Source of the DNA: Nitrosomonas europaea
Lineage (GTDB): Bacteria > Pseudomonadota > Gammaproteobacteria > Burkholderiales > Nitrosomonadaceae
Direction of reading: 5' to 3'
Assembly: GCF_900167395.1 (NCBI RefSeq)
Contig: NZ_FUWK01000040.1
Span: 1-24,675 of the forward strand
Length of the DNA: 24,675 nucleotides
Part shown: positions 1 through 22,896 of the stretch, in pieces
Numbering within the stretch: position 1 is the stretch's first letter
Layout: every line of letters starts with the position of its first letter
The notes under the pieces: generated by a model
Database searches by the model: none
What the model saw: only the letters and a program-made list of their open reading frames with translations
Told to the model about the DNA's origin: nothing
Program-made: the position numbers and the translations under genes

Positions 1-568
1 ACAGCTTCCATTCCCTGTTTTTCCGCCTGTTCAACAATGGCATTACTGTCATAGCCACGATCTGCCAGCAGATGATCTGCATCAATCCCTTCGATCAGGC
101 GGCCAGCCTGCGTGCAATCAGCAGTGGTACCTTGTGTAACAAGGATTCTGACCGGCATACCATGCGCATCCACGGCCAGATGTATCTTGGTGTTGAGCCC
201 CCTTTTGTCCGATTCATATCCTGATTACCTCCTCTGGCTCCACTGGCGTGTGGATGAACTTTACAGTGACTGGCATCCATTATCAGCCATTCATAATCTG
301 GATCATCAATCAGGATTTCCAGCAATTTTTCCCAGATACCTTTGTCACGCCAGCGAATGAAACGGCGATGAGTATTGCTCCAACCCCCGTAGTCCGGCGG
401 TAAATCCCTCCATGGGGCTCCTGTCCGTATAATCCAGAAAACAGCATTGATAAACTGACGATTATCTGTGGCCACCCCTCCCCATGCCCCTTCTCGGCCT
501 GGTAAATGCCCCTCAAGTAGCGACCATATCCTATCTGAAATATCATGCCTGCGATGTGAATGTGTCAT
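1..568 (-). CDS. IS5-family DDE transposase, OrfA/OrfB in two frames, C-terminus outside the window
   Basis: ORF 95-568 (MTHSHRRHDISDRIW...GAPWRDLP...) is the N-terminal DNA-binding part. The reverse complement of 1-203 in the -1 frame reads KRGLNTKIHLAVDAHGMPVRILVTQGTTADCTQAGRLIEGIDADHLLADRGYDSNAIVEQAEKQGMEAV, a DDE region. The frames meet at an A4G5 run (198-208), as in frameshift-dependent IS427-group elements. Confidence 0.8.
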
Positions 569-5100: not shown

Positions 5101-5165
5101 CGCTTGCCCCGCTCACTATCCGGCTCCTGTCAGCCAGATTTCCAATATCAATAGGTATGTTGCGC
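5095..5165 (+). other. attC-like site 7 (71 bp), weak structure
   Basis: ACTTAAC (5095-5101, perfect RYYYAAC, contains the stbE TAA stop) ... central CCGGCT-N6-AGCCAG ... ATCAATAGG TAT GTTGCGC (5159-5165). The 3' end resembles the ATCAATAAC ACTT GTTATCT repeats at 21388-21409 and 22161-22182. The arms pair poorly. Confidence 0.4.
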
Positions 5166-5849
5166 AGAAGAACTTTTCTTTCCTGGAGTAGTGGCAAAGA
5201 CAGTGCATGGGCGCTTCATGTGCTGCGGCAAGATCCGCATGTCGATGTGATCGGGTTATTTTGCACAGTCAACAAAGTGTTTGATCGTGTTGTCATGCAT
5301 GGCGTAAGGGTGGCACTGCTACAGCAACAAGCGGAAAGTGCCGGTCTGCCGCTACACATCATCGAGATTCCCTATCCTTGCAGCAATGACGAATATGCAT
5401 CCGCCATGTCTGCGTTTGTTGATTCCGCCAGAAAGGAAAACATTGAGTGCTTTGCATTTGGCGATCTCCTGCTCGAAGATGTGCGTCAGTATCGGGAAGA
5501 TCGTCTGAATGGAACCGGGATAACACCCATTTTTCCGCTTTGGGGCATTCCAACAAAAACCCTCTCCCGGGAGATGGTGGCCGGTGGATTAAAGGCTGTG
5601 ATCACCTGCATTGATCCGAAACGTATTCCGGAGAGTTTCGCGGGCAGGGAGTACAACGAATCTTTTTTAGATGATATTCCGGGTAGCGTTGATCCTTGCG
5701 GTGAATATGGTGAGTTCCATACCTTCTCATTCGATGGGCCCATGTTTCAGAATCCGATAGACGTAGTGTTGGGAGAAACTGTCCATCGAGATGGTTTTGT
5801 ATTCACCGATCTGCTGTCACTCACATCCAGCACCGAGCCGACCCATTAG
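5157..5849 (+). CDS. PP-loop ATP pyrophosphatase, Dph6/MJ0570-like (adenine nucleotide alpha-hydrolase superfamily)
   Basis: N-terminal SWSSGKDS PP-loop, and a C-terminal CGEYGEFHTF motif typical of the DUF71/diphthine-ammonia-ligase-like family. Confidence 0.75.
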   Translation: MLRRRTFLSWSSGKDSAWALHVLRQDPHVDVIGLFCTVNKVFDRVVMHGVRVALLQQQAESAGLPLHIIEIPYPCSNDEYASAMSAFVDSARKENIECFAFGDLLLEDVRQYREDRLNGTGITPIFPLWGIPTKTLSREMVAGGLKAVITCIDPKRIPESFAGREYNESFLDDIPGSVDPCGEYGEFHTFSFDGPMFQNPIDVVLGETVHRDGFVFTDLLSLTSSTEPTH

Positions 5850-6143: not shown

Positions 6144-7457
6144 ATGAAAGCTTTATTTTTTCTGCGCCATTACAACGATATCGATCACATCACGCCGGTA
6201 ATTTCAAAATGGTCAGAATCTGGTCATGAAAGTCTCGTAGTTCTGCTGGGCCGTCCCAAATTTCTCAAGGATTATCGCATCAAGTTCCTGAGCACGCTCG
6301 ACCGCGTTCGAGTCGCCCCTATCCGGCGTTTGCTATCCCCGCTGAAGTTTATGCAATGGCGCCTGCAGACACTTCTCCTGAACAGAAGCGTGAAGCGCCT
6401 TTTTCTGATTGGCAAACTTATCGAGAAGTTGGCCCGAAAATATGATGCTCAAAAACGTACAGCAGTCTGGCAAAGCACTGCCGGACGGTTGCTGGAGCAT
6501 GGCTTCAGCGATGGGAATGAAGGTGGAGTAGTTGTGTTCGACTGGATCACCAGCGATTCGCCTGTCCCGATCGAGTGGGTTGAAATCATCGTAACGATGG
6601 CAAGAACCATGGGCCTCGGCGCGGTATCTCTGCCGCATGGTGACAGCCCTCACGCCAGTCAGCTGATACGCCATCATGAATGGGTTCTGAAGCCGGATGC
6701 CTTGTACTCGGCTGCAAGAATATTCGACAAACTCGTAGTTCCCAACGAATTGTGTGCAACCCGTTTCCGGCCATTTCTGAGCAACGAGGCGATTGCCGTT
6801 CTGGGTTCACCACGCTACTGCGACGAATGGCTGGATAAACTTGCCACACTGTCACCAGCCCCCCGGTTAAAAACCAACCAGGACACCCGCCTCAGAATCG
6901 TCATGTTCCTGAGAAAAAGCGAATTCACCACATTCTGGGAAGAAGTCGGTGAAATCATTGGCATGATCGCCACATTTCCGGGAGTGGAACTGGTGATCAA
7001 GCCCCATACACGGGGAGGCTGGAGACAACCGCTGACTGGCAGCGCCTCTCTGCGCCAGCTTGCAAACGTACGTGTGGCAGAAGACAGCGAGCATTCGATT
7101 TCTCTGATGAATTGGGCCGATATCATCATCGATCTGGCTACTTCAGTGGTGTTTGAGGCTGTCAAGGCAAAAAAACCGGTGATGGCAGCCGATTATCTCC
7201 ACGCCGGCCGGTCTGCTCTGGCTCACTTCATGCCGGAAACAGAACTGAAATGCCGGGATGATGTGTACACAATGATCGACAGATTTTTAACCGCGGGATA
7301 CGATTCCTATTATGTGGAGGCGCATCGTCAGCGCTTCATCGAAGAAATGCTGCATGTCGGCGGCGCTGATGTCCTCCCGCGTTATGTCGCTCTCCTGGAA
7401 GAGCAGACAATGCGCAAGAAACCGGATCAGGCCAATAACACGAATACTCCTGAATAA
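6144..7457 (+). CDS. hypothetical glycan-biosynthesis protein, possible GT-B / capsule-synthesis (KpsS/TagF-like) transferase
   Basis: 437-aa ORF. FPGVELVIKPHTRGG and ADIIIDLATSVVFEAVKAKKPVM resemble, by eye, the C-terminal half of 14098-15513. Its stop lies 1 nt from the next ATG. Confidence 0.55.
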   Translation: MKALFFLRHYNDIDHITPVISKWSESGHESLVVLLGRPKFLKDYRIKFLSTLDRVRVAPIRRLLSPLKFMQWRLQTLLLNRSVKRLFLIGKLIEKLARKYDAQKRTAVWQSTAGRLLEHGFSDGNEGGVVVFDWITSDSPVPIEWVEIIVTMARTMGLGAVSLPHGDSPHASQLIRHHEWVLKPDALYSAARIFDKLVVPNELCATRFRPFLSNEAIAVLGSPRYCDEWLDKLATLSPAPRLKTNQDTRLRIVMFLRKSEFTTFWEEVGEIIGMIATFPGVELVIKPHTRGGWRQPLTGSASLRQLANVRVAEDSEHSISLMNWADIIIDLATSVVFEAVKAKKPVMAADYLHAGRSALAHFMPETELKCRDDVYTMIDRFLTAGYDSYYVEAHRQRFIEEMLHVGGADVLPRYVALLEEQTMRKKPDQANNTNTPE

Positions 7458-7458
7458 T

Positions 7459-8631
7459 ATGGCCTCCGACAAAGCAAATGCCTGTCTGATTTGCACCGGC
7501 CGGCAACCGATCCACCCCATTACGCGCTTGTACCGTTATGCAGGTTTCATTGAATGGGATACCGGTTTTTCACAAATGAGGAAGACTCCACCTCCGGAAG
7601 TTCATTTTGGCAGCCCCGGTCAGACACCCGGTCACCTGCGCAATACCTTGGCAGAACGGATCGCAGCCGTACCTGCTGGAGGCACTATCGACTGGGTAAC
7701 CTATTATTTCCGCGACCTCTGTCTTGCCAAAGCACTCGTCCAGGCGCACAAACGAGGTGTGCGCATTACGCTGACCCTCGAAGGCAGACCGCGTATTCCA
7801 TACGCCAATGATGCGGTGATCGCTTTGCTCTCAGGGCCTGACGGGCTGGGTGATGCATTGCGCATCGTTACCCTCCCCGGTGTACCGTCACCCGCAACAA
7901 AATCATGGAAACCCCAGCTACACGAAAAACTCTACTGTTTCTCGCACCCCGAACCTGTTGCCTTCATCGGCTCCTTCAATCCATCAGGCAACGGCCCGGA
8001 AGATGATCCCGAGATCATCCGGGAGATTGGTGACCAGGATCGCGGCTACAACGCCCTGATCGGTCTCAAGGATCCGGTACTGGTCGAGAAACTGGCAGAA
8101 CATGCAAGACAGCTGCACCAGTCACCCCCCGGGCTTTTCTACCGGTTCACCACCGATACGAACAATGCTATCCATGGTACAGATACCGATATCTATTTCT
8201 GGCCACGGACAGATACACATCCTATCGTACAATTTTTGCGCAAAACCGGCAGCAGCGCACGTGTCCGCATCGCGGCCTCGCACATCCGGATGGAAAGTGC
8301 AGTCGACATCATGATCAGTCTTGCAAGACGCGGGGTCGATCTGGAAATACTGGCCGAATCCACCCTCAGGCGTGTCACACCCAGGGTGGAACAGCGTCTG
8401 GCCAACGCCGGAATCCGGTTCAGGCGCATCCGGCCTTCCGGCTCTCTACCCATGCATCTCAAATTTGTACTGATCGAAGAGGACAATCGTGCCTGGTCGA
8501 TCTTCGGAAGCTTCAACTGGACCAAACCCTCATTCTGGCTGAATCATGAAATCGCGGCAATTTCCAGTAACCCTGTCATTTTCGAGTCCCTTGCACGCTG
8601 TTGGGATATGCTGAAGAACGAAAGCAACTGA
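7459..8631 (+). CDS. phospholipase D (HKD) superfamily protein with two HxK...GSxN motifs
   Basis: ATG 7459 (MASDKANACLICTG...). Motif 1 is LHEKLYCFSHPEPVAFIGSFNPSG and motif 2 is MHLKFVLIEEDNRAWSIFGSFNW. The canonical Asp is replaced by Ser in motif 1 and Glu in motif 2. Confidence 0.75.
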   Translation: MASDKANACLICTGRQPIHPITRLYRYAGFIEWDTGFSQMRKTPPPEVHFGSPGQTPGHLRNTLAERIAAVPAGGTIDWVTYYFRDLCLAKALVQAHKRGVRITLTLEGRPRIPYANDAVIALLSGPDGLGDALRIVTLPGVPSPATKSWKPQLHEKLYCFSHPEPVAFIGSFNPSGNGPEDDPEIIREIGDQDRGYNALIGLKDPVLVEKLAEHARQLHQSPPGLFYRFTTDTNNAIHGTDTDIYFWPRTDTHPIVQFLRKTGSSARVRIAASHIRMESAVDIMISLARRGVDLEILAESTLRRVTPRVEQRLANAGIRFRRIRPSGSLPMHLKFVLIEEDNRAWSIFGSFNWTKPSFWLNHEIAAISSNPVIFESLARCWDMLKNESN

Positions 8632-8723: not shown

Positions 8724-9560
8724 CTACAACGCTGTCCATCCCCCATCGATGACCAGATTTGCACCTGTCATATAACTGGATGCATCCGAAAGCAGAAAGA
8801 GGATGGCTCCCCGGTACTCCTCTTTTTCTGACATACGCCCCAGAATAGTTCGTGACGAATAGTGACCGGTAAACTCGGAATCGTGTTTATTCCAGACACC
8901 GCTGGGCGTGAGCAGATTGGTACGAATGGATGTATTCATGTAATAGGCGGCCAGAAATTTGGTGAGTCCCAGCAACCCTGCCTTACACACCGAATACACC
9001 GCTGGTTTATAGGTCTGCGCTTCCTGCCCGGCTTTTTTGTAGATACGTTGATCCGGCCCCACGAGGCCGTAATTGGATCCAAGGAAAACGACGGATCCCC
9101 TGCCGGATTTCTCCATTATTCTGCAGGTGGCCTGTGCGAGCTGGAATGCACCCGTCAGATTGACATCCAGAGAAGTCTGCCAAAGCGCCAGGGGAAATTC
9201 AGTAAATTTTGAAAAGCGGGAAGTATCAGAGCCTTGCTCAAATTTCGGATCGATCGCGGCACTGTGAACGACCCCATCGATCCGGCCAAACCGATCTTCA
9301 CATAATTGTGCGATGGATTGGCATGAATCCGCACGAGTCACATCCAGCACCTGAATCAGGACGTGTACATCCGGATGGGAAGCAATTATTTCATTTTTCA
9401 ATAGCTCCAGCCGGTTACCATCCAGATCACCCAGTATCAGGTCCGCACCGGCTGAAGCAGCTGCAAGAGCGAATTCCGTACCGAGAAGGCCCGTTGCACC
9501 GCTGATGAGAACGGCCCGCCCGCTGAGATCAAAGGGCGTTCCTTTATAGGGTTGGTTCAT
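8724..9560 (-). CDS. short-chain dehydrogenase/reductase (SDR), PtmA-like
   Basis: ISGATGLLGTEFA (TGxxxGxG) and YSVCKAG (YxxxK). Overlaps the upstream gene by 4 nt. Confidence 0.85.
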   Translation of the reverse strand: MNQPYKGTPFDLSGRAVLISGATGLLGTEFALAAASAGADLILGDLDGNRLELLKNEIIASHPDVHVLIQVLDVTRADSCQSIAQLCEDRFGRIDGVVHSAAIDPKFEQGSDTSRFSKFTEFPLALWQTSLDVNLTGAFQLAQATCRIMEKSGRGSVVFLGSNYGLVGPDQRIYKKAGQEAQTYKPAVYSVCKAGLLGLTKFLAAYYMNTSIRTNLLTPSGVWNKHDSEFTGHYSSRTILGRMSEKEEYRGAILFLLSDASSYMTGANLVIDGGWTAL

Positions 9561-10558
9561 AATCTGACCTGCCGTCCGGTTTGAAGAGATTGTTTGGCTG
9601 CAAGCGCCGTATTCAGCACATCGATACCCTCCTGCAAAGTGACTCGCGGAATCGATCCGCCGGGAATACCTTCGATGAACTCCTTCATCATGGACAGAAA
9701 AAGTTCATTCCGATCCCAGGAAGGTGCCAGGATGACTTCCTCCAGGAGATGCCCATTCTGCTGCAGTGTAGTGAGGCGCGCAGGATAATCCCAATCGACG
9801 ATAGCCTTTTCAGCAACGATATTCATATGCCGAACCGGTGGTTTGCGCCAGTAATCCATACGGAGCTGAACACAGATCCCCTGCTCCGTTTCGAATGAAA
9901 TGAGCGCTGTATCTTCTGCCGTGACTTCCAATGAGGTTCGATGCCCCCCGATGGCAAAGACACTCCTGGGTTTGCCGAAAAGCCAGTGCAGATAATCCAG
10001 TTCATGGATCAGTGTGAGTATGACACCGCCTCCCTGATCAGCCCGTGCCGCATAACTCTGCCGATAATCCTCCCACGGATGCCAGTCAGGCAGATACTCG
10101 CCCAGATCGACCTGTACGGAATAGATTTTTCCCAGTCTGCCCTGCTGTATCCATTCTTCTATTTTCCGTAATCCCGGATGCATTCTGAGCTGACAACCAA
10201 CCAGCACGCGAGGCCCGTGCGGATCCACACAGCGCATCAACTCGGACAAATGCCGTTTTTCATGTGCGACAGGTTTTTCCACATAGACATGACACCCTGC
10301 CTTGAGCGCTTCGATAAGCGTTTTCAGGTGTAATGAAGTCGGATTGGCCACCACCACCAGATCAAAGTTTTGTTTGAGTGCCTGATCGAGGCTCTGAAAC
10401 AGCTGTACATCTTTCGGGATGATCTGTGCGGGAGGCGGCAGATTGCGGGTACGCACTGCGCCCAATTCCCGAATCCCGAGTGCATGCAAATTATTGAGAT
10501 GCCTGACTCCGATGGAGCCCAGTCCAACTACCACAGCCTTCAAAGCTGAAATCTTCAA
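9557..10558 (-). CDS. Gfo/Idh/MocA-family NAD(P)-dependent oxidoreductase
   Basis: N-terminal VVVGLGSIGVRHL Rossmann motif and HVYVEKPVAH (EKP motif). Overlaps both neighbours by 4 nt. Confidence 0.85.
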   Translation of the reverse strand: MKISALKAVVVGLGSIGVRHLNNLHALGIRELGAVRTRNLPPPAQIIPKDVQLFQSLDQALKQNFDLVVVANPTSLHLKTLIEALKAGCHVYVEKPVAHEKRHLSELMRCVDPHGPRVLVGCQLRMHPGLRKIEEWIQQGRLGKIYSVQVDLGEYLPDWHPWEDYRQSYAARADQGGGVILTLIHELDYLHWLFGKPRSVFAIGGHRTSLEVTAEDTALISFETEQGICVQLRMDYWRKPPVRHMNIVAEKAIVDWDYPARLTTLQQNGHLLEEVILAPSWDRNELFLSMMKEFIEGIPGGSIPRVTLQEGIDVLNTALAAKQSLQTGRQVRL

Positions 10559-11271
10559 AGGGTGACTCCCCGTTTTTCCATCAGAAACTCAGCCAGTTGA
10601 AACGAAAATTCATCATCGATATCGATCGAATCTCTACCCTCGATCTTCAGGGGCAGTATGCGAATACCCGTGAGGGATTTTTTTTCCAGAATCGTCCGGG
10701 TACGTATCAGATCCAGATAACCGACCTGCCAGTAGACCGCAGGCAAACTTTGTCTGGGCTCATTAAAAGGTTCCGGAACACCGGGAATATTCAGCAGAGC
10801 CCGCAGGAAACCATTGTCATCGATGGTCCACATCTTGTAAGGGTTCTGCGCCGGCTCGGTCACTCCACGCACGGAATCGGCATCCGGATGCTTTTTCAGA
10901 AGTTCGACCGCTTCCTCTATTTTTTCAACCCTGCGCGCAGGAGAGGTAGGACGGAACTGAAAAATGGCATCAGGAAGAGGCACATGGTTTTGTTCCAGCC
11001 AGCCCAGAAAATGCAGGAACACCGGCAGATCGCGCGTATCGTCCTGTGCCAGATCAGCCGGCCTCAGAAAAGGCACTTCTGCACCGGCATTTCTCGCTAC
11101 CTCTGCAATTTTCTCCGAATCGGTGCTGACAAACGTTTTCTGAATGGAAGGCGATTTGAGCGAAATTTCAATTGAATGGGTAATCAGCGGCTTGCCACAT
11201 AACAACCGGATATTTTTATGCGGCACGCCTTTTGACCCTCCCCGCGCGGGGATGAGAGAATAAATCAACAT
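10555..11271 (-). CDS. acylneuraminate (nonulosonate) cytidylyltransferase, CMP-NeuAc-synthetase family
   Basis: LIPARGGSKGVPHKNIRLLCGKPLI is the family signature. 238 aa, first gene of a three-gene minus-strand operon. Confidence 0.85.
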   Translation of the reverse strand: MLIYSLIPARGGSKGVPHKNIRLLCGKPLITHSIEISLKSPSIQKTFVSTDSEKIAEVARNAGAEVPFLRPADLAQDDTRDLPVFLHFLGWLEQNHVPLPDAIFQFRPTSPARRVEKIEEAVELLKKHPDADSVRGVTEPAQNPYKMWTIDDNGFLRALLNIPGVPEPFNEPRQSLPAVYWQVGYLDLIRTRTILEKKSLTGIRILPLKIEGRDSIDIDDEFSFQLAEFLMEKRGVTL

Positions 11272-11592
11272 TGGCCGGGGTTTATCTAATCAGATTCCAA
11301 ACAAACAATATGCGAGTAAAGTCAAATTCTGGCGATTCTGCAAATCAGCATTTTGCAAACCGGTCACCAGCTCTTCCGGCCGGCACATGGTAAAAATGAC
11401 AGACAATTCTACTGTTTAAGCACGCCGGATGCACATAAACCCTGCAAACTGTTTACAGTTCAGCACGCTTATTCAAACCAGGATTACCGCAATCAGGACA
11501 TGAGCAAAACATCCGCCGAGGCAACGAAACAATGGTATAAGGCATGGGCACATTCATAAGCGATAAGCGCGCCACACCGACCCTAGACAACA

Positions 11593-11621
11593 TTGACACA
11601 TTCCAGGGTATGAATTTTTAT
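11593..11621 (+). promoter_or_regulatory. candidate sigma-70 promoter for the NeuB-fusion operon
   Basis: TTGACA (11593-11598), 17 nt, TTTTAT (11616-11621), about 55 nt upstream of ATG 11675. The -10 is weak. Confidence 0.3.
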
Positions 11622-11674
11622 ATTCCTGTCATACACACCCGGCAATAATTACCTCCATCAAACAGGATTGCAGC

Positions 11675-13924
11675 ATGCGCATTGAAAAAAAGATCAAGGA
11701 TCATCTGGTTTTTTCCGGAGACAGTATCCTCGATGCTCTGAAACGCATCAATGACAACCAGTCCCGCATCGTTTTCGTCGTACAGGATAACGGGGTATTG
11801 ATCGGAGCGGTCAGTGATGGCGATGTACGGCGCTGGATGACTCAGGCAACCGAATTCAATCTGAATCTGCCGGTCGATCACGTGATGAACCGTAATTTCA
11901 TTGCGCGGCCGGTTACCGAATCTCAACATCAGATTGCCGATTATTTTGATCACAAACGCGACATCATTCCACTGATCGACGAACAGGGACGTTTTGTCGC
12001 CCTGGCGCGAAAATCAGCCACAGGACTTCAGATCGGAGATTTCCTGATTGCCGACCAGAATCCCGCATTCATCATCGCCGAGGTCGGTAACAACCACAAC
12101 GGCGATATCGGCCTTGCGAAAGAACTGGTGAATCTGGCAGTGGAAGCTGGAGCGGATTGTGTCAAATTCCAGATGCGGGATCTCTCCTCCCTGTATTCAA
12201 ATCAAGGCAGGAATGCGGAAGCGGGTTATGACCTCGGATCACAATACACGCTGGATCTGCTCAATAAATTCCAGCTGAACCATGACGAACTTTGTCAGGT
12301 ATTCGATTACTGCAGGCAGCAGGATATTTTGCCCCTATGCACGCCTTGGGATCTGGTAAGTGCCCATGTACTGGATGAATACGGACTGGAAGCCTTTAAA
12401 GTGGCTTCGGCTGATTTCACCAACTACGAAATGCTGGAGACTCTGGCGAAAACGGGCAAACCATTGCTCTGCTCCACCGGAATGAGTTCAGAAGCAGAAA
12501 TCAAAGGTTCAGTAGATTTATTGCGCCGGCTGGGCGCTCCTTTTGCCTTGCTGCACTGTAACTCGACCTACCCTGCTCCCTTCAAGGATGTAAACCTCAA
12601 TTACCTGCCGCACTTGAAACAACTGGGAGGTACCGTAGTAGGATATTCCGGTCACGAACGTGGATTCTCAGTACCTTTGGCTGCCGTTGCCCTTGGAGCC
12701 CGCATCGTGGAAAAACATTTCACTGTCGATCGCAGTATGGAAGGCAACGACCACAAAGTCAGCCTGCTGCCGGAAGAATTTGCAGAAATGGTGCGGCAGA
12801 TTCGTAACATCGAGGAAGCCCTGGGACAAGGCGGTGAGCGCTCACTCACACAAGGGGAAATGATCAATCGTGAAAATCTGGCCAAAAGCCTGGTAATCAA
12901 TTGCGATCTTTCGCAAGGGCAGCTTATCAGGCGCAGTATGATCACAGTGAAAAGCCCCGGGCAGGGTCTGCAACCCAATCGTATCGATGAGCTGGCAGGT
13001 AAGGTAGCACAGCGCGATTTCAAGGCCGGAGATTTCTTCTTTGAAACGGATATCACCCCGAAATCAGTCAAAAAACAGCACTATGTCTTTTCACGCCCTT
13101 ACGGGATCCCGGCACGCTATCACGATTATCGCGCGCTGATCGAGGGAATGAAAATCGACTTTGTCGAGTTTCATCTGAGCTACCACGATCTGGACGTAAA
13201 GCTGTCTGACTATTTCTCTGATCCGCTGTCGATCGGTTATGCCGTGCACAGCCCGGAGCTGTTCGCTGGTGACCATATTCTCGATCTGGCAAGCCATGAT
13301 GCGGATTATCAGGCGCATTCCATTGCCGAATTGAAACGCACGGTGGCTGTAGCCGCCGAGTTGCGCCAGTATTTCCCGGCGACACCGAAACCGGTACTGG
13401 TACTCAATGCCGGAGGCTGGACGCCACAGAATTTCCTGCCGGTTGAAGCACGTACGAAACTTTATGACAAAGTAGCCAAAGCACTGGATGAAATCGACTT
13501 GAGTACTGTTCAACTGGCTATTCAGACCATGCCCCCTTTTCCCTGGCACTTTGGGGGGCAGAGCCACCATAACCTGTTTGTCGACCCGGATGAAATCGCG
13601 GCATTCTGCGATAAAACCGGCCATCGTATCTGCCTTGATATTTCACATTCCATGATGGCCTGCAACTATTACCAGTGGGATTTCAATACATTTCTCCAAA
13701 AGGTGCTGCCTTATACCATCCATCTGCATATAGTCGATGCCAAGGGAGTAGATGGTGAAGGAGTTCAGATCGGCCATGGTGACGTGGATTTCACCTTGCT
13801 GCGTGATCAGTTGAACCAATTTGCTCGCGGAGTACAGTTCATACCTGAAATCTGGCAGGGTCACAAAAACAAGGGAGAAGGATTCTGGTCGGCATTGGCA
13901 TTTCTGGAGAAAACGAGCCTCTAG
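11675..13924 (+). CDS. three-part fusion: CBS pair + NeuB-type nonulosonate synthase with SAF domain + xylose-isomerase-like TIM-barrel domain
   Basis: aa 1-115 is CBS-like (VFVVQDNGVLIGAVSDGDVRRW; IIPLIDEQGRFVAL). aa ~125-400 is NeuB-like (FIIAEVGNNHNGD..., CVKFQ, FKVASADFTN, LHCNSTYP, GYSGHE, EKHFT). aa ~405-460 is SAF-like (ITVKSPGQGL). aa ~470-749 is TIM-barrel-like (FVEFHLSYHD, YAVHSPE, LNAGGW, LDISHS, HLHIVDA). Confidence 0.85.
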   Translation: MRIEKKIKDHLVFSGDSILDALKRINDNQSRIVFVVQDNGVLIGAVSDGDVRRWMTQATEFNLNLPVDHVMNRNFIARPVTESQHQIADYFDHKRDIIPLIDEQGRFVALARKSATGLQIGDFLIADQNPAFIIAEVGNNHNGDIGLAKELVNLAVEAGADCVKFQMRDLSSLYSNQGRNAEAGYDLGSQYTLDLLNKFQLNHDELCQVFDYCRQQDILPLCTPWDLVSAHVLDEYGLEAFKVASADFTNYEMLETLAKTGKPLLCSTGMSSEAEIKGSVDLLRRLGAPFALLHCNSTYPAPFKDVNLNYLPHLKQLGGTVVGYSGHERGFSVPLAAVALGARIVEKHFTVDRSMEGNDHKVSLLPEEFAEMVRQIRNIEEALGQGGERSLTQGEMINRENLAKSLVINCDLSQGQLIRRSMITVKSPGQGLQPNRIDELAGKVAQRDFKAGDFFFETDITPKSVKKQHYVFSRPYGIPARYHDYRALIEGMKIDFVEFHLSYHDLDVKLSDYFSDPLSIGYAVHSPELFAGDHILDLASHDADYQAHSIAELKRTVAVAAELRQYFPATPKPVLVLNAGGWTPQNFLPVEARTKLYDKVAKALDEIDLSTVQLAIQTMPPFPWHFGGQSHHNLFVDPDEIAAFCDKTGHRICLDISHSMMACNYYQWDFNTFLQKVLPYTIHLHIVDAKGVDGEGVQIGHGDVDFTLLRDQLNQFARGVQFIPEIWQGHKNKGEGFWSALAFLEKTSL

Positions 13925-14097
13925 GAAACCTCTGAAAAACGTCGACGAGGCAGCCAGTTCAATTCAACGCGGGTTCAGGACTGGCAATAATTGTTCCCTT
14001 TGACTCTCGAATATTTAATAATGACGCAATTCCCCGAGTAAATCGCCTGCTGGTTTCCCGCGCTTCTTACTGCCAACCTATTCCGATCTGACCGAAC

Positions 14098-15513
14098 ATG
14101 GCTGCTACTGCTACTTCTGCTTCAACCCTGATCATTCCTGTCGAGAACCAGGTACGTGAGCTGGATGCAAAGCTCCTGCTGGCTTGCGTAGCGGCTGAGC
14201 GCGGGTTTCCGGTGATCATCGGCTCACGTGCCTTCGTTCATTTTGAAATCGCATCACTACCACGCGGCATCTATCTGGCAAAAAGCATGCGCAGCCTGAG
14301 TAATTCCATGTTCAGGATCATTCGGATGCTCGGGCACGAAATCGTTGCCTGGGAAGAGGAAGCGCTGGTTCACCCGCCGGCTGATACCTATTACACATTG
14401 CGACTCTCTCCCACTACGATCAGGAATGTTTCCCATATTTTTGCCTGGGGTCAGGAAAACGTCGATCTGCTTCAGCACTATCCGCAGTTTCCGGAGAATT
14501 TACCTGTTCACCTGACCGGAAATCCACGTGGAGATATCCTGCGACCGGAAATGCGCGCCTATTTTGCAGCAGAAGTAGAACGTCTACGCAATCTTTACGG
14601 TGATTTCATTCTGATCAATACCAATTTCACCGACGTCAATCCTTTCATCCCCAATATCGGCCTGTTCATTCCGGCAAAGGATGGAGATAAAAAATCCCGG
14701 CGCGGACAGGCCGGGATCGGTATGAGCGAAGAATTTGCCGAAGGCCTGTGGCACCACAAGAAAGCCATACTGGAAGATTTCAGGCAGCTCATCCCGGCGC
14801 TGGAGCAGGTATTCCCGGATGTCACGATCGTGGTACGGCCTCATCCAAGTGAAAATTTTCAGGTTTATCACGATATCGCTGCTCGATGCCAGCGCGTAAA
14901 AGTCACGAATGAAGGCAACGTCATCCCCTGGCTTCTGGCTTCGAAAACCATGGTGCACAACGGCTGCACCACTGGCCTGGAAGCCTATGCCCTGGGAGTT
15001 CCGGCCATTTCCTATCTTGCAACCTTCAATGAATATTACGACTACGATTTCCAAGGCCTGCCTACCCGGCTGAGTTATCAGTCATTCAATTTCAGTGAGC
15101 TCCAGGATACCCTGTCCCGAATTCTGAACGGTGATCTGGGCGCTCCGGGAGGTGAAGAACGCAAGACACTCATCGATTACTATCTGGCGGCACAGAACGA
15201 TCGCCTCGCATGTGAACGTATCGTCGATGTTCTGGAAGAAAGTGGCTACAGCCAGTCCCAACCACCGGCAAGGGCTACCCCGGTGTATCTGGCGGGATGG
15301 GCGCTTGCAAACCTCAAAGCCACGCTGACCCAGCTAAATATGCGCCGCCCCGGACCGAATCGGTTGTCTTACCACGATCACCGTTTTCCTGAAATCCCGG
15401 TTGAACAGATCGAACAGAAAATTGCACGATTTGGCAACCTGCTGAATCGCTTCGATTCCATCAAAGTAAAACAGCATTCACGCCATCTGTTCAGAATAAA
15501 CAGTTCACTCTGA
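14098..15513 (+). CDS. surface-carbohydrate biosynthesis protein, possible GT-B / KpsS-like transferase
   Basis: 471 aa. IPVENQVRELDAKLLLA at the N-terminus, then FPDVTIVVRPHPSEN and NGCTTGLEAYALGVPAI in the C-terminal half. I recall such proteins next to neuB/neuA-type genes, but this is unverified. Confidence 0.55.
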   Translation: MAATATSASTLIIPVENQVRELDAKLLLACVAAERGFPVIIGSRAFVHFEIASLPRGIYLAKSMRSLSNSMFRIIRMLGHEIVAWEEEALVHPPADTYYTLRLSPTTIRNVSHIFAWGQENVDLLQHYPQFPENLPVHLTGNPRGDILRPEMRAYFAAEVERLRNLYGDFILINTNFTDVNPFIPNIGLFIPAKDGDKKSRRGQAGIGMSEEFAEGLWHHKKAILEDFRQLIPALEQVFPDVTIVVRPHPSENFQVYHDIAARCQRVKVTNEGNVIPWLLASKTMVHNGCTTGLEAYALGVPAISYLATFNEYYDYDFQGLPTRLSYQSFNFSELQDTLSRILNGDLGAPGGEERKTLIDYYLAAQNDRLACERIVDVLEESGYSQSQPPARATPVYLAGWALANLKATLTQLNMRRPGPNRLSYHDHRFPEIPVEQIEQKIARFGNLLNRFDSIKVKQHSRHLFRINSSL

Positions 15514-16787: not shown

Positions 16788-17019
16788 ATGCCATATTCCA
16801 CACTATTTTAAGAGTGACAGCAAGCAGCCGTCATATCAGAGCTGCGCTGTATCAGCCAAAGGGGAAACCTGTACCAGAATTTTCTGAGATCTCGAATCAC
16901 GTGAGTTACTCGAAACCAGTGCCGTAAAGATTCAGAACAATCCTGCCGTATCCATACCAGCATCATGCTGTAACCGACAAAGGCTAATCTGTCGTAAGGC
17001 AGGGGCGCAAAGTTTCCGG

Positions 17020-17038
17020 TCCTGATCCATGATCAGGA
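17020..17038. promoter_or_regulatory. perfect 8-bp inverted repeat in the apaG/protease intergenic region
   Basis: TCCTGATC cat GATCAGGA, about 95 nt upstream of the protease ATG. Function unknown. Confidence 0.25.
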
Positions 17039-17132
17039 AAGCGGGACTGCCGAAGTTCGCATCCGATTTTCCATTCGGGCATGCGTGCTGATGAGTCGGC
17101 TTTCTATAACCCATCTTCTCAAGGAGCCGTGC

Positions 17133-19262
17133 ATGGCAAATGCAAAACCAGTTTGCTCACTCTTTCACTCTACTTTTCATGATGGTATTGCCAGTGTTTT
17201 TCACCGTTCTTTCAGCTTTCCACTTCTCCTGATTCTGCTGATCGCCTTTTCCGGCAGCGGCTACGCCAATTCGAGCAAAGAAACCCGGGCAGCTGCCAGA
17301 TCGGAATCTGCTGGTAAAACTGTTTCATCCCGCTGGGCGAAAGGCCGCTTGCTGGTCATTCCCCGTGCCGGTTTGACTGCGATGGAATTCGATAAAGCCA
17401 CCAAACCATATGGCGTGAAATCCAGACGCAGGCTCAACGGACTGAATGCTCACGTCTACGAACTGCCCGATGGCGTGGATGAAGTCAAAGTATTGGACAA
17501 ACTCAAGAAAGACCGGCGCTTCAAGGCGGTAGAGCTGGACAGGCTGGTTGAACCTGCTCAAGTCGTCACTGACCCCGCTTTTGGCAACAGTTGGGCACTG
17601 CCTAAAATTCAGGCGCCTGCCGCCTGGGATATTGCGACCGGTGACGGTATCACCATCGCGATTCTGGATACCGGTGTGGATGGCACTCACCCTGATCTGG
17701 CCGCCAACATGCTTCCCGGCTGGAATGCGTATGACAATAATACCGATACCAGTGATATCTACGGCCACGGTACCAAAGTGGCCGGCACGGCAGCCGCAGT
17801 CGCCAATAACGGTGCCGGCAGTTCCGGATTGGCCTGGAATGCACGCATTCTGCCGGTGCGTATTTCCATGCCGGATGGCCGTGCATACTTGAGCGACATG
17901 GCCAAAGGTATCCGCTGGGCGGCAGACAACGGCGCCAGAATAGCCAATATCAGCTACGGCGGTGCAGAAAGCCTGACTGTCCAGTCAGCTGCCAATTACA
18001 TGCGCAGCAAGGGTGGAGTGGTAGTCATGTCCGCAGGTAATTCCGGTGGATTGAACAATTTTCCCGCCAGTAACGCCATCATCGTTGCTTCAGCTACGGA
18101 CAGCAAAGATGCCCGTGCCAGCTGGTCCAGCTACGGGCCTTATGTCGATGTGGCAGCCCCCGGTGTGAGCATCTATACCACGATACGCGGTGGTGGTTAC
18201 GGCTATGTCTCCGGCACATCCTTCTCCAGCCCGATCGTAGCGGCAGCTGCTGCATTGCTGTTTTCCATCAACCCGGATCTTGCTCCGACGGATATCGACC
18301 AGATGCTGACCGCTACTGCGCAAGACCTTGGCAACGCCGGATATGACCAATATTACGGCCATGGCCGTATCAATGCCGCCAGTGCGGTCAATGCTGCCCA
18401 CGCACGCATCAGCGTAGACAGAACGGCACCGCTGATCAGCATTGCTTCCCCCACTGGTGGAACAGTCTCTGGCAGCGTTCCGGTAGATGTCAATTATTCC
18501 GACAACAAGGGCGTGGTGCGGGTGGATCTGTACGTCAACGGCCGCAAAACAATCGAAGATACTCAACCACCTTTCGCCTTCGCCTGGGATACCACGACAC
18601 TGGCTAACGGCAGCTATACGCTGGTCGCATATGCCTTCGATGCCGCCGGCAACCAGGGCACTTCTTCCACTGTGAATGTCACGGTAAAAAATACTGTGGC
18701 CGATACCACCCCGCCGACGATCAGCATTACCTCCCCTGCCGGTGGAGCCGTCGTCTTAGGCAGTGTGCCAGTCAATGTCAATTCTTCCGACAACATTGGA
18801 GTGGTACGCACGGAGCTACACGTCAATGGTAAAAAAGTGATGGAAGGTACCGGCTCCAGTTTTGTCTGGGATACCAAATCACTGGCAGATGGCAACTATA
18901 CGCTGGTAGCGTATGCCTTTGATGCTGCCGGCAACCAAGGTGCTTCCTCTCCGGTAGCTGTCAGTGTAAAAAATACCGGCACTACTACAAATACCGAACC
19001 ACTGCCGCAAATCAACTCATTCAACCTCAGGGATGGGCAGAACGTCAGCCGTAACCAGAATATCAGGGTAACTGCCGACAGGAACACCCGCAAAATCAAC
19101 CTGAAAATCAATGGCGGCATTATCGCCGCTGCTAACGGTAACTCGTTGAGTTATCGCTGGAATACCAGTGCGATCCCCAAAAATAGTAATATCACCGTCA
19201 CGGCAGAAGCATTCAATGCCAAAGGGGATGCCACCAGCAGAACAGTCACGGTAAGAAATTAG
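17133..19262 (+). CDS. secreted subtilisin-like serine protease (peptidase S8) with C-terminal tandem Ig-like domains
   Basis: AAGGAG lies 6 nt upstream of ATG 17133, and there is a hydrophobic signal region FPLLLILLIAFSGSGYA. Catalytic triad motifs are AILDTGVD, HGTKVAGTAAA and SGTSFSSPIVAAAAA. Three ~95-aa repeats follow. Confidence 0.85.
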   Translation: MANAKPVCSLFHSTFHDGIASVFHRSFSFPLLLILLIAFSGSGYANSSKETRAAARSESAGKTVSSRWAKGRLLVIPRAGLTAMEFDKATKPYGVKSRRRLNGLNAHVYELPDGVDEVKVLDKLKKDRRFKAVELDRLVEPAQVVTDPAFGNSWALPKIQAPAAWDIATGDGITIAILDTGVDGTHPDLAANMLPGWNAYDNNTDTSDIYGHGTKVAGTAAAVANNGAGSSGLAWNARILPVRISMPDGRAYLSDMAKGIRWAADNGARIANISYGGAESLTVQSAANYMRSKGGVVVMSAGNSGGLNNFPASNAIIVASATDSKDARASWSSYGPYVDVAAPGVSIYTTIRGGGYGYVSGTSFSSPIVAAAAALLFSINPDLAPTDIDQMLTATAQDLGNAGYDQYYGHGRINAASAVNAAHARISVDRTAPLISIASPTGGTVSGSVPVDVNYSDNKGVVRVDLYVNGRKTIEDTQPPFAFAWDTTTLANGSYTLVAYAFDAAGNQGTSSTVNVTVKNTVADTTPPTISITSPAGGAVVLGSVPVNVNSSDNIGVVRTELHVNGKKVMEGTGSSFVWDTKSLADGNYTLVAYAFDAAGNQGASSPVAVSVKNTGTTTNTEPLPQINSFNLRDGQNVSRNQNIRVTADRNTRKINLKINGGIIAAANGNSLSYRWNTSAIPKNSNITVTAEAFNAKGDATSRTVTVRN
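18414..18983 (+). repeat. tandem coding repeat, two units of ~285/282 bp (plus a third divergent unit to ~19259)
   Basis: ...SPTGGTVSGSVPVDVNYSDNKGVVRVDLYVNG...GSYTLVAYAFDAAGNQG... vs ...SPAGGAVVLGSVPVNVNSSDNIGVVRTELHVNG...GNYTLVAYAFDAAGNQG.... The same repeat produces the two minus-strand shadow ORFs ending in PWLPAASKAYATSV. Confidence 0.85.
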
Positions 19263-19316: not shown

Positions 19317-19393
19317 TCGGGAAAATTGACAGTGTTATATTGAAGCCAGGCTTATAGCGTATAAAGATGTTTATAAACAACAATATAATATAT

Positions 19394-19409
19394 TGGCACG
19401 TTTTGTGCT
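19394..19409 (+). promoter_or_regulatory. sigma-54 (-24/-12) promoter candidate
   Basis: TGGCACGTTTTGTGCT against the consensus TGGCACG-N4-TTGCW. The GG-N10-GC spacing is correct with a single mismatch. It lies 50 nt upstream of ATG 19459 and is preceded by an AT-rich tract. Confidence 0.55.
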
Positions 19410-19458
19410 TCCTATCAATAGGTATAGTTATTATTATAATAAGCCAGCGAAGGAAAAT

Positions 19459-20046
19459 ATGAAAAAACAAGTAATCAAGGGAATGTTGGCGGCATCTGCT
19501 GCAGCTTTGATGTTGGGCGTATCTGCGGCTCACGCCAATGTGATTGATGAGTTAGTGGGCTCTGCCAAATTGGGTAACTCTGGTGATGGTACAGAGCTTG
19601 CATTTATCAGAAGTATAACAGGCGATAATACCCTGACACTGGATTTCAAAATCAACGATAATGATTCGAGCTTCAATGTAATGTCCAATGGACTTGATTC
19701 CTGGTTCATTGATGTTGCTCCAGACACACCGGGATATTTTATGTTGAAATTGGGCGTCCCCGGGAACTCAACCTTACATAGTCATTATGTTTTCAAAAAC
19801 ATAGGTGAGTTGGATAAACTTGTATGGTCAAATGATCAGGTAAATTACCTGACAGGAGGCAATTGTGGTCTTAATGGAAGCCCCAATAGCTGTAATATCG
19901 GGCGTTTGAGCCACTATGTTGGTACACAGGGTATTGGTGGTGAAGATCCTGAAGTACCGGGAGAGATTCCTGAACCGGCCAGCATGTTGCTGTTTGGGGC
20001 CGGGTTACTGGGACTGGGGTTGAGCCGCCGCCGTAAACTGGTCTAA
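19459..20046 (+). CDS. PEP-CTERM sorting-domain secreted protein
   Basis: Signal peptide MKKQVIKGMLAASAAALMLGVSAAHA; C-terminus IPEPASMLLFGAGLLGLGLSRRRK (PEP motif, TM helix, basic tail); AAGGAA RBS. Confidence 0.85.
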   Translation: MKKQVIKGMLAASAAALMLGVSAAHANVIDELVGSAKLGNSGDGTELAFIRSITGDNTLTLDFKINDNDSSFNVMSNGLDSWFIDVAPDTPGYFMLKLGVPGNSTLHSHYVFKNIGELDKLVWSNDQVNYLTGGNCGLNGSPNSCNIGRLSHYVGTQGIGGEDPEVPGEIPEPASMLLFGAGLLGLGLSRRRKLV

Positions 20047-22216: not shown

Positions 22217-22645
22217 TTATGCTTCGGTTTCCCAGGGATTAATTACATTCAAACCTGCAATGTCCTCAAAATCAACGGTATTACGCGTAGATAAGAACAT
22301 TCGATATGCCAGCGCAATCGCAGCGATCTGAGCATCCTCCACGCTGATGGGCCGACCCATTCGGGTCCGTGTAGAAACGATACGCCCATAGTAACTGGCC
22401 GCGATTTCATCAAATGGCAGGCAGCGCCCGGCAAAATCCTCATCGAACATTGTCCGGGCGGCCTGGCTTAAACTTTTCTGTCGCTTACTCTCCGGCATCA
22501 GTGCCAGGCCTAATTCGATTTCGGCACGGCTAACAGCGTTTGTCCAGATCTCATTGGGCGCCTGCCTGTCCAGCCAAACAACCACTTGAGTAGCGGGTTG
22601 CAGACGCATAAATTCAGAAAGCACATTGGTATCGAGCAAAATCAT
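22217..22645 (-). CDS. vapC: type II toxin VapC (PIN-domain ribonuclease)
   Basis: MILLDTNVLSEFMR... with the conserved acidic residues of PIN domains. Overlaps the antitoxin by 4 nt. Confidence 0.85.
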   Translation of the reverse strand: MILLDTNVLSEFMRLQPATQVVVWLDRQAPNEIWTNAVSRAEIELGLALMPESKRQKSLSQAARTMFDEDFAGRCLPFDEIAASYYGRIVSTRTRMGRPISVEDAQIAAIALAYRMFLSTRNTVDFEDIAGLNVINPWETEA

Positions 22646-22896
22646 ATTGGCTCATCCCAACTCGGCGGAGTGCGCGGCACCTGACGTGCGGGCAAAGCAA
22701 ACTCTTTGCTTGTTGACTCAGCAAAGCGACTCAGCAAATGCTGGCCAAATGGGAATTGACTACTACCAGCACGAGAAAGCTCCTGCCGAAGGATTCGCCG
22801 CACCTCCTCTTCCATTGACACCCCATGCTGCGCCGCACGAATACGCAGCAACCGTTTGGTTACATCGTCCACATTGCGAATGGTCAACGTTGCCAT
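22642..22896 (-). CDS. vapB: type II antitoxin VapB, FitA/Arc-type RHH
   Basis: MATLTIRNVDDVTKRLLRIRAAQHGVSMEEEVRRILRQ. Confidence 0.8.
   Translation of the reverse strand: MATLTIRNVDDVTKRLLRIRAAQHGVSMEEEVRRILRQELSRAGSSQFPFGQHLLSRFAESTSKEFALPARQVPRTPPSWDEPI

Follow-up and report, generated by a model that had tools for sequence, protein, structure and literature searches.

A 24,675-nucleotide (nt) stretch of Nitrosomonas europaea DNA (NCBI RefSeq assembly GCF_900167395.1, contig NZ_FUWK01000040.1; referred to here, at its full length, as the window) encodes a 749-amino-acid (aa) protein in which a CBS pair, a NeuB synthase domain, a SAF domain, and a xylose isomerase-like triosephosphate isomerase (TIM) barrel are joined in one polypeptide. 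We propose, at a probability of roughly 0.55, that this fusion is a multidomain enzyme that heads a compact pathway to a cytidine monophosphate (CMP)-linked nonulosonic acid destined for a surface glycan, with a synthase of the 3-deoxy-D-glycero-D-galacto-nonulosonic acid (Kdn) or neuraminic acid (Neu) type and a barrel that supplies an accessory step.

The fusion is an intact and widespread gene

The fusion open reading frame (ORF) starts with an ATG, is preceded by an AGGA located 8 to 11 nt 5' of that codon, and runs for 749 codons with zero internal stops. A Pfam scan of the full-length protein recovered NeuB (residues 151 to 386; E value, 2.9e-85; 286 bits versus a gathering cutoff of 22.1), SAF (residues 405 to 456; E value, 1.2e-7; 32.6 bits versus 21), and AP_endonuc_2 (PF01261, the xylose isomerase-like TIM barrel; residues 493 to 745; E value, 7.3e-27; 95 to 97 bits versus 31.1), along with one CBS motif that was also above its gathering score (residues 12 to 55; E value, 4.6e-7). 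When the N-terminal 125 aa were scanned separately, two CBS stretches were detected (E value, 3.1e-9), and residues 13 to 108 aligned with the CBS pair of KpsF/GutQ arabinose-5-phosphate isomerases. The AlphaFold2 model of the whole protein had a mean predicted local distance difference test (pLDDT) score of 91.9. Because its N terminus consisted of two beta-alpha-beta-beta-alpha units, the CBS pair was considered real. An earlier interpretation made from the letters alone (the sequence-only reading) had described this combination of domains in a single frame; the Pfam scores and the lack of a stop upheld that description, and both the CBS pair and the C-terminal TIM barrel were supported by Pfam as well as by AlphaFold2.

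A 99%-identical protein of 749 aa is recorded on 14 contigs, and more than 120 homologues with 71 to 99% identity have the same Pfam domains and, in nearly every case, a length of exactly 749 aa; they come from Nitrosomonas, "Candidatus Methylopumilus," Bacteroidota, and Rhabdochromatium, among others. Since homologues of identical length and domain content exist in hundreds of genomes, the frame is genuine, and an assembly, frameshift, or gene fusion artifact was ruled out. The 749-aa fusion is an intact, strongly conserved, and widespread gene.

When one genome per species was scanned with a pattern, relatives of full length were confirmed in at least 589 species genomes that belong to many phyla, including Cyanobacteria, Actinomycetota, Spirochaetes, Bacillota, and Planctomycetes. 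The best 80 of these at least 589 included Cyanobacteria, Rothia, Actinomyces, Sinomonas, Microbacterium, Rhizobium, Mesorhizobium, Pseudomonas, Leptonemataceae, Thalassobacillus, Mariniblastus, and Bdellovibrionales, and further protein searches added Arthrobacter, Micrococcus, Rathayibacter, Kocuria, and Nocardioides (many Micrococcales and Nocardioides). The nearest named relatives are Nitrosomonas proteins (91% identity), and the protein at locus L006 is 96% identical. The window protein shares 75% identity with homologues from Bacteroidota, 72% with those from Cyanobacteria, and 71% with those from Spirochaetales, but only 61% with that of Zoogloea; this closer relationship to the first three groups than to Zoogloea makes an older horizontal transfer likely.

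Homologues already bear database names such as "N-acetylneuraminate synthase family protein," "TIM barrel protein," and [quoted passage not shown] Our literature searches found no description or characterization of the fusion, and a large paper on the phylogeny of nonulosonate synthases does not mention it. The architecture is catalogued in databases and, as far as found, is functionally unexplored.

The barrel is coupled to NeuB-type synthases

A search made with the barrel only, over 1.84 billion representatives, returned 793 clusters at 50% identity. Among the best 150 of the 793, most barrels were fused to NeuB in proteins of about 730 to 777 aa with the CBS pair or about 600 to 660 aa without it, and a minority were stand-alone proteins of about 270 to 310 aa. 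Where contigs were visible (loci L087 and L088), the stand-alone barrels were encoded directly downstream of an ordinary NeuB-SAF gene of 344 to 349 aa, and at locus L086 the stand-alone barrel was preceded by a CBS-NeuB-SAF gene. The barrel subfamily thus exists essentially only together with NeuB-type synthases. That the two are fused in some genomes and adjacent in others is a textbook sign of activities that serve one pathway. The sequence-only reading had tied the barrel to a PEP (phosphoenolpyruvate)-condensing synthase, which agrees with these arrangements; it had also implied that the fusion was rare, a view that the number of species genomes and the existing database names do not bear out.

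One further protein (P0502; 895 aa) combines NeuB, SAF, and the barrel with an additional Glyco_transf_4 domain, which indicates that further fusions exist along the same pathway.

The NeuB-SAF portion resembles the animal synthase NANS

Residue conservation was counted over 49 diverse members of the fusion family, which diverge to 30% identity. Residues E136, K164, Q166, T223, K242, S245, S267, S297, Y299, S325, H327, E346, H348, and D359 of the NeuB domain were invariant in 49 of 49. The metal ligands H215 and H236 of Neisseria meningitidis NeuB were all kept, as were its PEP- and sugar-binding residues E25, K53, Q55, T110, K129, S132, S154, S213, E234, and D247; we take the roles of these residues to be those established for structure 1xuz. 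Since every metal-, PEP-, and sugar-binding residue is invariant, the NeuB domain should be an active PEP-condensing synthase. R168, H360, and K404 are additional invariant signatures of the family.

The fold is that of the bacterial NeuB, PseI, and LegI synthases (1xuu, 8h2c, and 1vli), with target-normalized template modeling (TM) scores of 0.83 to 0.90 in Foldseek comparisons with NeuB and PseI structures, and the PEP-binding, metal-binding, and catalytic residues of those enzymes are kept in the window protein. Those synthases, however, are single-function proteins of about 350 aa that act on free aldoses, which NeuC, PseG, or LegG release, and no such gene is conserved at the fusion loci. 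The NCBIfam equivalog cutoffs were also missed, with scores of 319.6 versus 399.65 for NeuB_NnaB (TIGR03569) and 234.7 versus 340.25 for PseI (TIGR03586). As judged from its sequence, the window protein is a NeuB superfamily nonulosonate synthase and not a NeuB or PseI equivalog. A further difference lies in the SAF domain, where WVKRPG of N. meningitidis NeuB aligns with TVKSPG. Arg314, which is present and essential in the N. meningitidis enzyme, is Ser427 in the window protein; the residue at this position was Ser in 43 of the 49 family members, Thr in 3, Ala in 1, and Pro in 1, and it was never Arg.

Human NANS (N-acylneuraminate-9-phosphate synthase; NP_061819.2, with the sequence confirmed by exact lookup) was used as the animal reference. 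The NeuB domain of the window protein was 36% identical to human NANS (209 bits), compared to 173 bits with N. meningitidis NeuB, and the split-gene NeuB forms were 40 to 42% identical to NANS (257 to 261 bits), compared to 181 bits with N. meningitidis NeuB. In a comparison that was limited to three reference sequences, all 14 of the barrel-associated NeuB domains gave higher scores with NANS than with N. meningitidis NeuB. Three motifs, GYSGHE, G-x-DH (which contains H360), and L-x-KS (which contains K404), are common to the window NeuB domain and human NANS and are absent from N. meningitidis NeuB. NANS also shares the NeuB-plus-SAF layout and likewise has no Arg at the position of Arg314; it differs in that the human protein has 359 aa, with neither a CBS pair nor a C-terminal barrel. 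NANS condenses PEP with N-acetylmannosamine-6-phosphate (ManNAc-6-P) or mannose-6-phosphate (Man-6-P), and the animal phosphatase, NANP, is a separate enzyme of the haloacid dehalogenase (HAD) type. The resemblance to NANS suggests that the bacterial clade also uses a hexose-6-phosphate.

Fold, relatives, and putative active site of the barrel

When the C-terminal 288 residues were modeled separately with AlphaFold2, a confident TIM barrel was obtained (pLDDT, 96.9; predicted TM-score, 0.94), and Foldseek matched it with a probability of 1.00 to many members of the xylose isomerase-like superfamily. The top matches, with TM-scores of 0.6 to 0.72 and 12 to 20% identity, were MJ1311, UlaE, Art22, ketose 3-epimerases (L-ribulose, D-psicose, and D-tagatose 3-epimerases), endonuclease IV, and YcjR. 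A profile of the barrel family searched against the PDB retrieved MJ1311 first (E value, 1.7e-14), then Mycobacterium tuberculosis endonuclease IV (1.9e-5), and then UlaE (0.006).

MJ1311 (PDB 3wqo; a "D-tagatose 3-epimerase-like protein" of Methanocaldococcus jannaschii) is the closest solved relative of the barrel (Foldseek E value, 8e-12). It has the motifs VHaP, vHPG, lEN, D-x-x-H, and H-x-H-x-D...E in common with a subtype of the barrel family ("HEN") but is a stand-alone protein, and it has His and Glu-Asn where the window protein has Asn578 and Gln617-Thr618. MJ1311 is listed as a predicted endonuclease IV homologue (PMC2770678), although its PDB label is epimerase-like.

Among fused and stand-alone barrels, E498, H525, W624, G627-G628, D655, H658, H685, D688, E695-G696, G702, E725, W727, and G729 were invariant, and H500, R481, and H730 were nearly so. 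H525, N578, Q617, D655, H658, H685, D688, E695, and E725 form a putative metal site. In a local-mode hhalign comparison with Escherichia coli Nfo (sequence confirmed), which had a probability of only 48%, the barrel and Nfo residues were paired as H525/H69, N578/H109, Q617/E145, D655/D179, H658/H182, H685/H216, and E725/E261; seven of the nine zinc ligand positions of Nfo were thereby aligned, and the equivalents of D229 and H231 were ambiguous. Endonuclease IV (Nfo; 1qtw and 5zhz), the second-best sequence relative of the barrel in the PDB, differs from the window protein at two ligand positions, which are Asn and Gln in the latter (His and Glu in 18 of 61 relatives). The barrel also shows no sign of DNA-binding loops, and its gene context is one of carbohydrate synthesis.

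These two positions covaried perfectly in 61 barrel sequences: His578 was accompanied by Glu617-Asn618 in 18, and Asn, Ser, or Thr at 578 was accompanied by Gln617 followed by Thr, Ser, or Asn at 618 in 43. The window protein is of the Asn578/Gln617-Thr618 type (window positions 13406 to 13408 and 13523 to 13528), and the His578/Glu617-Asn618 type occurs mostly in stand-alone or CBS-less proteins. This pattern points to a single, shared metal or anion site that has been remodeled into two versions.

The ketose 3-epimerases and UlaE (L-xylulose-5-phosphate 3-epimerase) share with the barrel the TIM-barrel fold and the location of metal ligands at the C-terminal ends of strands, at 12 to 18% identity. 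The Glu-Asp-His-Glu tetrad of the ketose 3-epimerases is represented in the barrel by Gln617-Asp655-His685-Glu725. As Gln617 replaces the first of the two acid/base Glu residues, the two-Glu epimerase mechanism is not available. In NCBIfam, the barrel gave noise-level matches only (CbiR, E value of 0.018; L-ribulose-5-phosphate 3-epimerase, E value of 0.025), and the two models of the latter enzyme scored 13.6 and 11.5 bits versus cutoffs of 317 and 200. The xylose isomerase-like superfamily, moreover, also includes endonuclease IV, a dehydratase, and the phosphodiesterase CbiR (PMC7733943). On these grounds neither isomerase nor epimerase is a justified name for the barrel, since homology does not fix its chemistry. 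The sequence-only reading had taken the TIM barrel to imply such an enzyme, a step that the breadth of the superfamily, Gln617, and the lack of a matching family model do not permit. Its broader suggestion, a regulated enzyme that couples isomerization or epimerization to PEP condensation, was retained with respect to the coupling of the barrel to NeuB and the optional CBS pair and was not upheld as stated with respect to isomerization or epimerization.

The CBS pair is an optional module

The forms of the fusion of about 600 to 660 aa show that the protein also occurs without the CBS pair. In CBS1, the motif G44..S47-D48-G49-D50 is conserved, with G44, G49, and D50 each present in at least 90% of the sequences. 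The pair is, to judge from this pattern, a dispensable add-on that bears a conserved ligand-type motif, and its being optional fits a regulatory role. It would probably sense a nucleotide or a CMP-sugar end product, in parallel with the CBS pair of the KpsF/KdsD-type isomerases found at the start of the CMP-3-deoxy-D-manno-octulosonic acid (CMP-Kdo) pathway.

Gene neighborhood of the fusion

ORFs were called and clustered in the fetched loci, and neighbors were counted over the 75 nonredundant loci in which the fusion ORF was called. A CTP_transf_3 cytidylyltransferase was the only consistent neighbor; it was located immediately upstream and codirectional in 37 of 75 loci, was adjacent in 46, and lay within three genes in 50. 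The survey of phyletic distribution and neighborhoods that had been suggested as a check on the fusion thus yielded many phyla and one constant partner, a NeuA-like cytidylyltransferase. Other recurrent neighbors encoded GT2, GT4, and Glyco_trans_1_2 transferases, Wzz-type kinases, ATP-binding cassette (ABC) exporters, TylF-type O-methyltransferases, hexapeptide acyltransferases, pyruvyl- and sulfotransferases, and a B12-radical-SAM enzyme. Among the annotated recurrent neighbors at these loci, no conserved NeuC/LegG/PseG hydrolase, PseB/LegB dehydratase, or HAD phosphatase was noted, and DegT-type aminotransferases (PseC/LegC family) were present at only about 10 loci. The fusion and the cytidylyltransferase look like a self-contained precursor module.

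In Nitrosomonas genomes, the fusion gene is part of a five-gene cassette that lies amid housekeeping genes and has a TIGR04396 gene in the same position. Genes for a short-chain dehydrogenase/reductase (SDR), a Gfo/Idh/MocA oxidoreductase, and the cytidylyltransferase are on one strand, and the fusion gene and the TIGR04396 gene are on the other; the window has the same five genes (Table 1). Recent acquisition of the cassette as a compositional island was considered and rejected, as its G+C content (about 0.50 to 0.52) is within the range of its flanks.

Table 1. Domains of the fusion protein and features of the surrounding cassette in the window
Feature	Position (nt)	Strand	Basis
Whole fusion ORF (CBS pair + NeuB + SAF + AP_endonuc_2 TIM barrel), 749 aa	11675..13924	+	Pfam, AlphaFold2
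CBS pair (Bateman module), aa 1-117; putative nucleotide or CMP-sugar sensor	11675..12025	+	Pfam, KpsF/GutQ match, AlphaFold2
NeuB catalytic (beta/alpha)8 domain, aa 131-386; predicted NANS-like PEP-condensing synthase	12065..12832	+	Pfam, invariant residues, NANS identity, Foldseek
SAF (antifreeze-like) domain, aa 395-460; Ser427 at the N. meningitidis NeuB Arg314 position	12857..13054	+	Pfam, alignment to 1xuu, 4ipi, 4ipj
AP_endonuc_2/xylose isomerase-like TIM barrel, aa 476-747	13100..13915	+	Pfam, AlphaFold2, Foldseek, profile, hhalign, covariation
NeuA-like CMP-nonulosonate cytidylyltransferase (predicted), conserved partner of the fusion	10555..11271	-	PF02348 (CTP_transf_3), 77.5 bits
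Divergent intergenic region, 403 bp, between the cytidylyltransferase operon (-) and the synthase operon (+); presumed promoters	11272..11674	.	ORF map
Gfo/Idh/MocA NAD(P) oxidoreductase	9557..10558	-	ORF overlaps neighbors; counterpart at only about 9 loci
SDR, weakly PtmA-like	8724..9560	-	PRK09186, 165.6 bits; FlagModPtmA, 107 bits (cutoff, 350)
TIGR04396 "surface carbohydrate biosynthesis protein," candidate nonulosonate transferase	14098..15513	+	456.5 bits (cutoff, 125)
Possible second glycosyltransferase (weak), 437 aa	6144..7457	+	BFO_1060 family model, 23.5 bits, E value of 2.6e-5; no Pfam match

The best PDB matches of the window cytidylyltransferase included CMP-N-acetylneuraminic acid (CMP-NeuAc) synthetase (6ifd) at 98 bits, versus 31 bits for KdsB, and its score with the PseF model was 136.5 bits, which is under the cutoff of 205.7. 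The gap between the CMP-NeuAc synthetase and KdsB scores favors a nine-carbon sugar over Kdo. Assignment of the locus as a CMP-ulosonic acid cassette is supported by these sequence comparisons. The overlap of the Gfo/Idh/MocA ORF with its neighbors suggests translational coupling. The intergenic region that separates the two divergent operons showed no significant promoter or terminator enrichment and no Rfam match.

The BFO_1060 family of glycosyltransferases is a distant relative of the TIGR04396 protein (53 bits), and in Tannerella BFO_1060 adjoins the legionaminic acid genes BFO_1063 to BFO_1066. We regard the TIGR04396 protein as a candidate nonulosonate transferase. No terminator was predicted in positions 13925 to 14097, between the synthase gene and the TIGR04396 gene, and the two are probably cotranscribed. 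The TIGR04396 protein and an unannotated 360-aa protein (L069:8191-9270), which precedes the cytidylyltransferase in actinobacterial loci, have a common "RPHP-x-E ... GVP" stretch (E value, 6e-4), which presumably resembles the HP motif of bacterial sialyltransferases. On the other side of the cassette, the ORF for the possible second glycosyltransferase is overlapped by 146 nt by an ORF with two PLD-like (PLDc_2) domains (positions 7312 to 8631, plus strand); neither ORF is in the Nitrosomonas eutropha version of the cassette.

The same trio of an SDR, a CTP-transferase, and an NAD(P)H oxidoreductase is found beside a nonulosonate synthase as ElaA/ElaB/ElaC in Acinetobacter baumannii KL49 and in PtmA/PtmB-type Campylobacter genes, a likeness of gene content and adjacency. 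ElaABC have been proposed to make a CMP-sugar and to epimerize one carbon of it via oxidation and reduction (PMC13656337). The ElaABC system differs in acting on legionaminic acid from a six-enzyme pathway that is absent at the window locus, and the window SDR is under the PtmA equivalog cutoff. PDB searches with the window SDR and Gfo/Idh/MocA proteins returned no entry recognizable as ElaA or ElaC. An epimerized product is plausible in this particular window, given the SDR and Gfo/Idh/MocA neighbors.

Proposed pathway and the step supplied by the barrel

In the pathway that we propose, the acceptor for PEP at the NANS-type domain would be a hexose-6-phosphate, in the simplest case Man-6-P, and the product of condensation would be a 9-phosphate of the Kdn (or Neu) type; the metal-dependent barrel would supply the one accessory step that other pathways take from separate enzymes. 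The free sugar would then be CMP activated by the neighboring cytidylyltransferase and transferred by the TIGR04396 protein. In the window, the Gfo/Idh/MocA and SDR pair could epimerize one carbinol of the sugar or CMP-sugar, as proposed for ElaA/ElaC.

As to the accessory step, we tentatively favor removal of the phosphate, ranked slightly above isomerization or epimerization. Dephosphorylation by the barrel would complete a two-gene pathway without any further enzyme. The ligand pattern of the barrel is endonuclease IV-like, and endonuclease IV ranked second after MJ1311 in the profile search. Phosphoesterases do exist in the xylose isomerase-like superfamily (PMC7733943). The more specific version of this proposal, in which the barrel represents a novel type of phosphatase for sugar phosphates (or of nucleoside diphosphate [NDP]-sugar hydrolase) within the AP endonuclease 2/xylose isomerase-like superfamily and the fusion turns Man-6-P and PEP into free Kdn, is possible but must be considered doubtful at present.

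A Kdn-type product would be in keeping with what is found in the environment. Kdn- and Neu-type sugars are reported to be common among environmental microbes, in which they are detected about as often as the "bacterial" types, and Streptomyces coelicolor is rich in Kdn (PMC8157484). The teichulosonic acid (Kdn polymer) operon of S. coelicolor comprises SCO4879 (NeuE-like), SCO4880 (NeuA), and SCO4881 (NeuB) (PMC3479208). Actinobacterial fusion loci mirror this order, with NeuA directly before NeuB and a further gene upstream. A deletion of SCO4879 to SCO4882 has been published as causing loss of the Kdn-teichulosonic acid.

Several points weigh against the proposed pathway. The use of a phosphorylated sugar is suggested solely by the resemblance to NANS. 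Asn578 and Gln617, at positions of endonuclease IV-type ligands, argue against a classical tri-zinc site, and the ketose 3-epimerases and UlaE are among the best structural matches at similar scores. We know of no phosphomonoesterase acting on a free sugar phosphate in this TIM-barrel superfamily, and the searchable literature contains no characterized member of the family. SCO4881 is at most a candidate member of the fusion family and serves as a lead only; the Kdn product is a hypothesis.

The most serious alternative is that the barrel is a sugar (or sugar phosphate) isomerase or epimerase that makes the aldose for NeuB, by conversion of fructose-6-phosphate to Man-6-P or by 2-epimerization of glucose-6-phosphate or N-acetylglucosamine-6-phosphate to Man-6-P or ManNAc-6-P, so that a single polypeptide would both furnish the precursor and condense it with PEP. 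Most characterized small-molecule members of AP_endonuc_2 are isomerases or epimerases, the top structural matches include UlaE, the three ketose 3-epimerases, the isomerase Art22, and YcjR, and the weak NCBIfam match is to an L-ribulose-5-phosphate 3-epimerase. About 30% of the barrel family (the "H...EN" type) keeps the classical Glu, and, with no conserved NeuC/LegG-type enzyme, an aldose from outside central metabolism would have to be made in some way. Man-6-P, however, already is a central metabolite and needs no dedicated isomerase, and with a NANS-like NeuB the two-gene module would still need a phosphatase. The first catalytic and metal-binding Glu of the ketose 3-epimerases is Gln617 in 43 of 61 members, including the window protein, and residue 617 covaries with residue 578, as would be expected for a metal or anion site, unlike an acid/base residue. 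The TM-scores are only 0.6 to 0.7, and no isomerase or epimerase model scored above noise. On balance, we consider this alternative less likely than not, and only slightly behind dephosphorylation.

A role of the barrel after condensation appears far less likely. By this account, the barrel would epimerize or dehydrate the nonulosonate beside its keto group, as in YcjS/YcjR, IolG/IolE, and DgpA/DgpBC, to give a nonstandard stereoisomer or a deoxy sugar. The Gfo/Idh/MocA enzyme and the SDR are encoded beside the fusion in the window, the PDB matches of the former include DgpA2 and glycoside 3-dehydrogenase-type proteins, and YcjR is among the Foldseek matches of the barrel. Genes for the Gfo/Idh/MocA enzyme and the SDR are present, however, at only about 9 to 12 of the approximately 75 loci and the barrel at all of them, and the core role of the barrel therefore cannot depend on that pair. 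Moreover, C3 of a 3-deoxy-2-ulosonate is not a stereocenter, so no epimerization can take place alpha to the native keto group.

To our knowledge, the aldose is set free from an NDP-sugar in every classical nonulosonate route of bacteria. The least likely alternative, that the barrel hydrolyzes a nucleotide sugar or sugar-1-phosphate (e.g., guanosine diphosphate-mannose [GDP-mannose]) to the free aldose in the role of NeuC, PseG, or LegG, would fill the place of the hydrolase that such routes need and that is not conserved at the fusion loci, and it is in line with the endonuclease IV-like ligand pattern, with CbiR as a phosphodiesterase precedent in the superfamily (PMC7733943), and with a GDP-mannose pathway gene upstream in the Methylopumilus locus, but the NANS-like features of NeuB point to a 6-phosphorylated acceptor instead of a free aldose, and the CbiR match is not significant.

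Other features of the window

Outside the cassette, a c-di-GMP-I-GGC riboswitch aptamer (RF03167) was detected at positions 16973 to 17055 on the plus strand, with 59.4 bits versus a gathering score of 59 (E value, 6.6e-12). It lies 30 nt upstream of a gene for a secreted subtilase with Big_7 domains (17085 to 19262), which is followed by a gene for a PEP-CTERM protein (19393 to 20046). This arrangement suggests cyclic di-GMP (c-di-GMP) control of an exosortase-linked surface protease. To the left of the cassette is insertion sequence debris, which comprises an N-terminal fragment of an IS4/5-family transposase (DUF4096; 95 to 568, minus strand) and an IS630-type transposase that is split into a helix-turn-helix ORF and a DDE_3 ORF (2078 to 2437 and 2499 to 2912, both plus strand). 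A gene for a PIN domain protein (22217 to 22645, minus strand) with a small overlapping ORF upstream (22642 to 22896, minus strand) has the layout of a VapBC-type toxin-antitoxin system. Positions 5157 to 5849 (plus strand) encode a Diphthami_syn_2/PAB0415-like putative ATP pyrophosphatase, whose family is better known from archaea and eukaryotes.

Significance

Nonulosonic acids shape how hosts, phages, and neighboring cells see bacterial surfaces, and the biosynthesis of sialic acid-type sugars in bacteria has a well-defined gap at this point. The fusion loci do not encode the classical NeuC-NeuB route. The module formed by the fusion and the cytidylyltransferase, whose range takes in nitrifiers, cyanobacteria, oral Rothia and Actinomyces, and rhizobia, could explain much Kdn- and Neu-type chemistry. 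The module also offers a compact cassette for engineering the production of CMP-sugars, and a large orphan branch of the xylose isomerase-like barrel superfamily would gain a function from it. If the barrel is an ordinary isomerase, the result would be a useful annotation correction and no surprise. If the fusion does combine a synthase and a phosphatase, it would provide a long-missing general bacterial route to environmental Kdn- and Neu-type sugars, and the fusion enzymes would be the closest relatives that the animal sialic acid synthase NANS has among prokaryotes.

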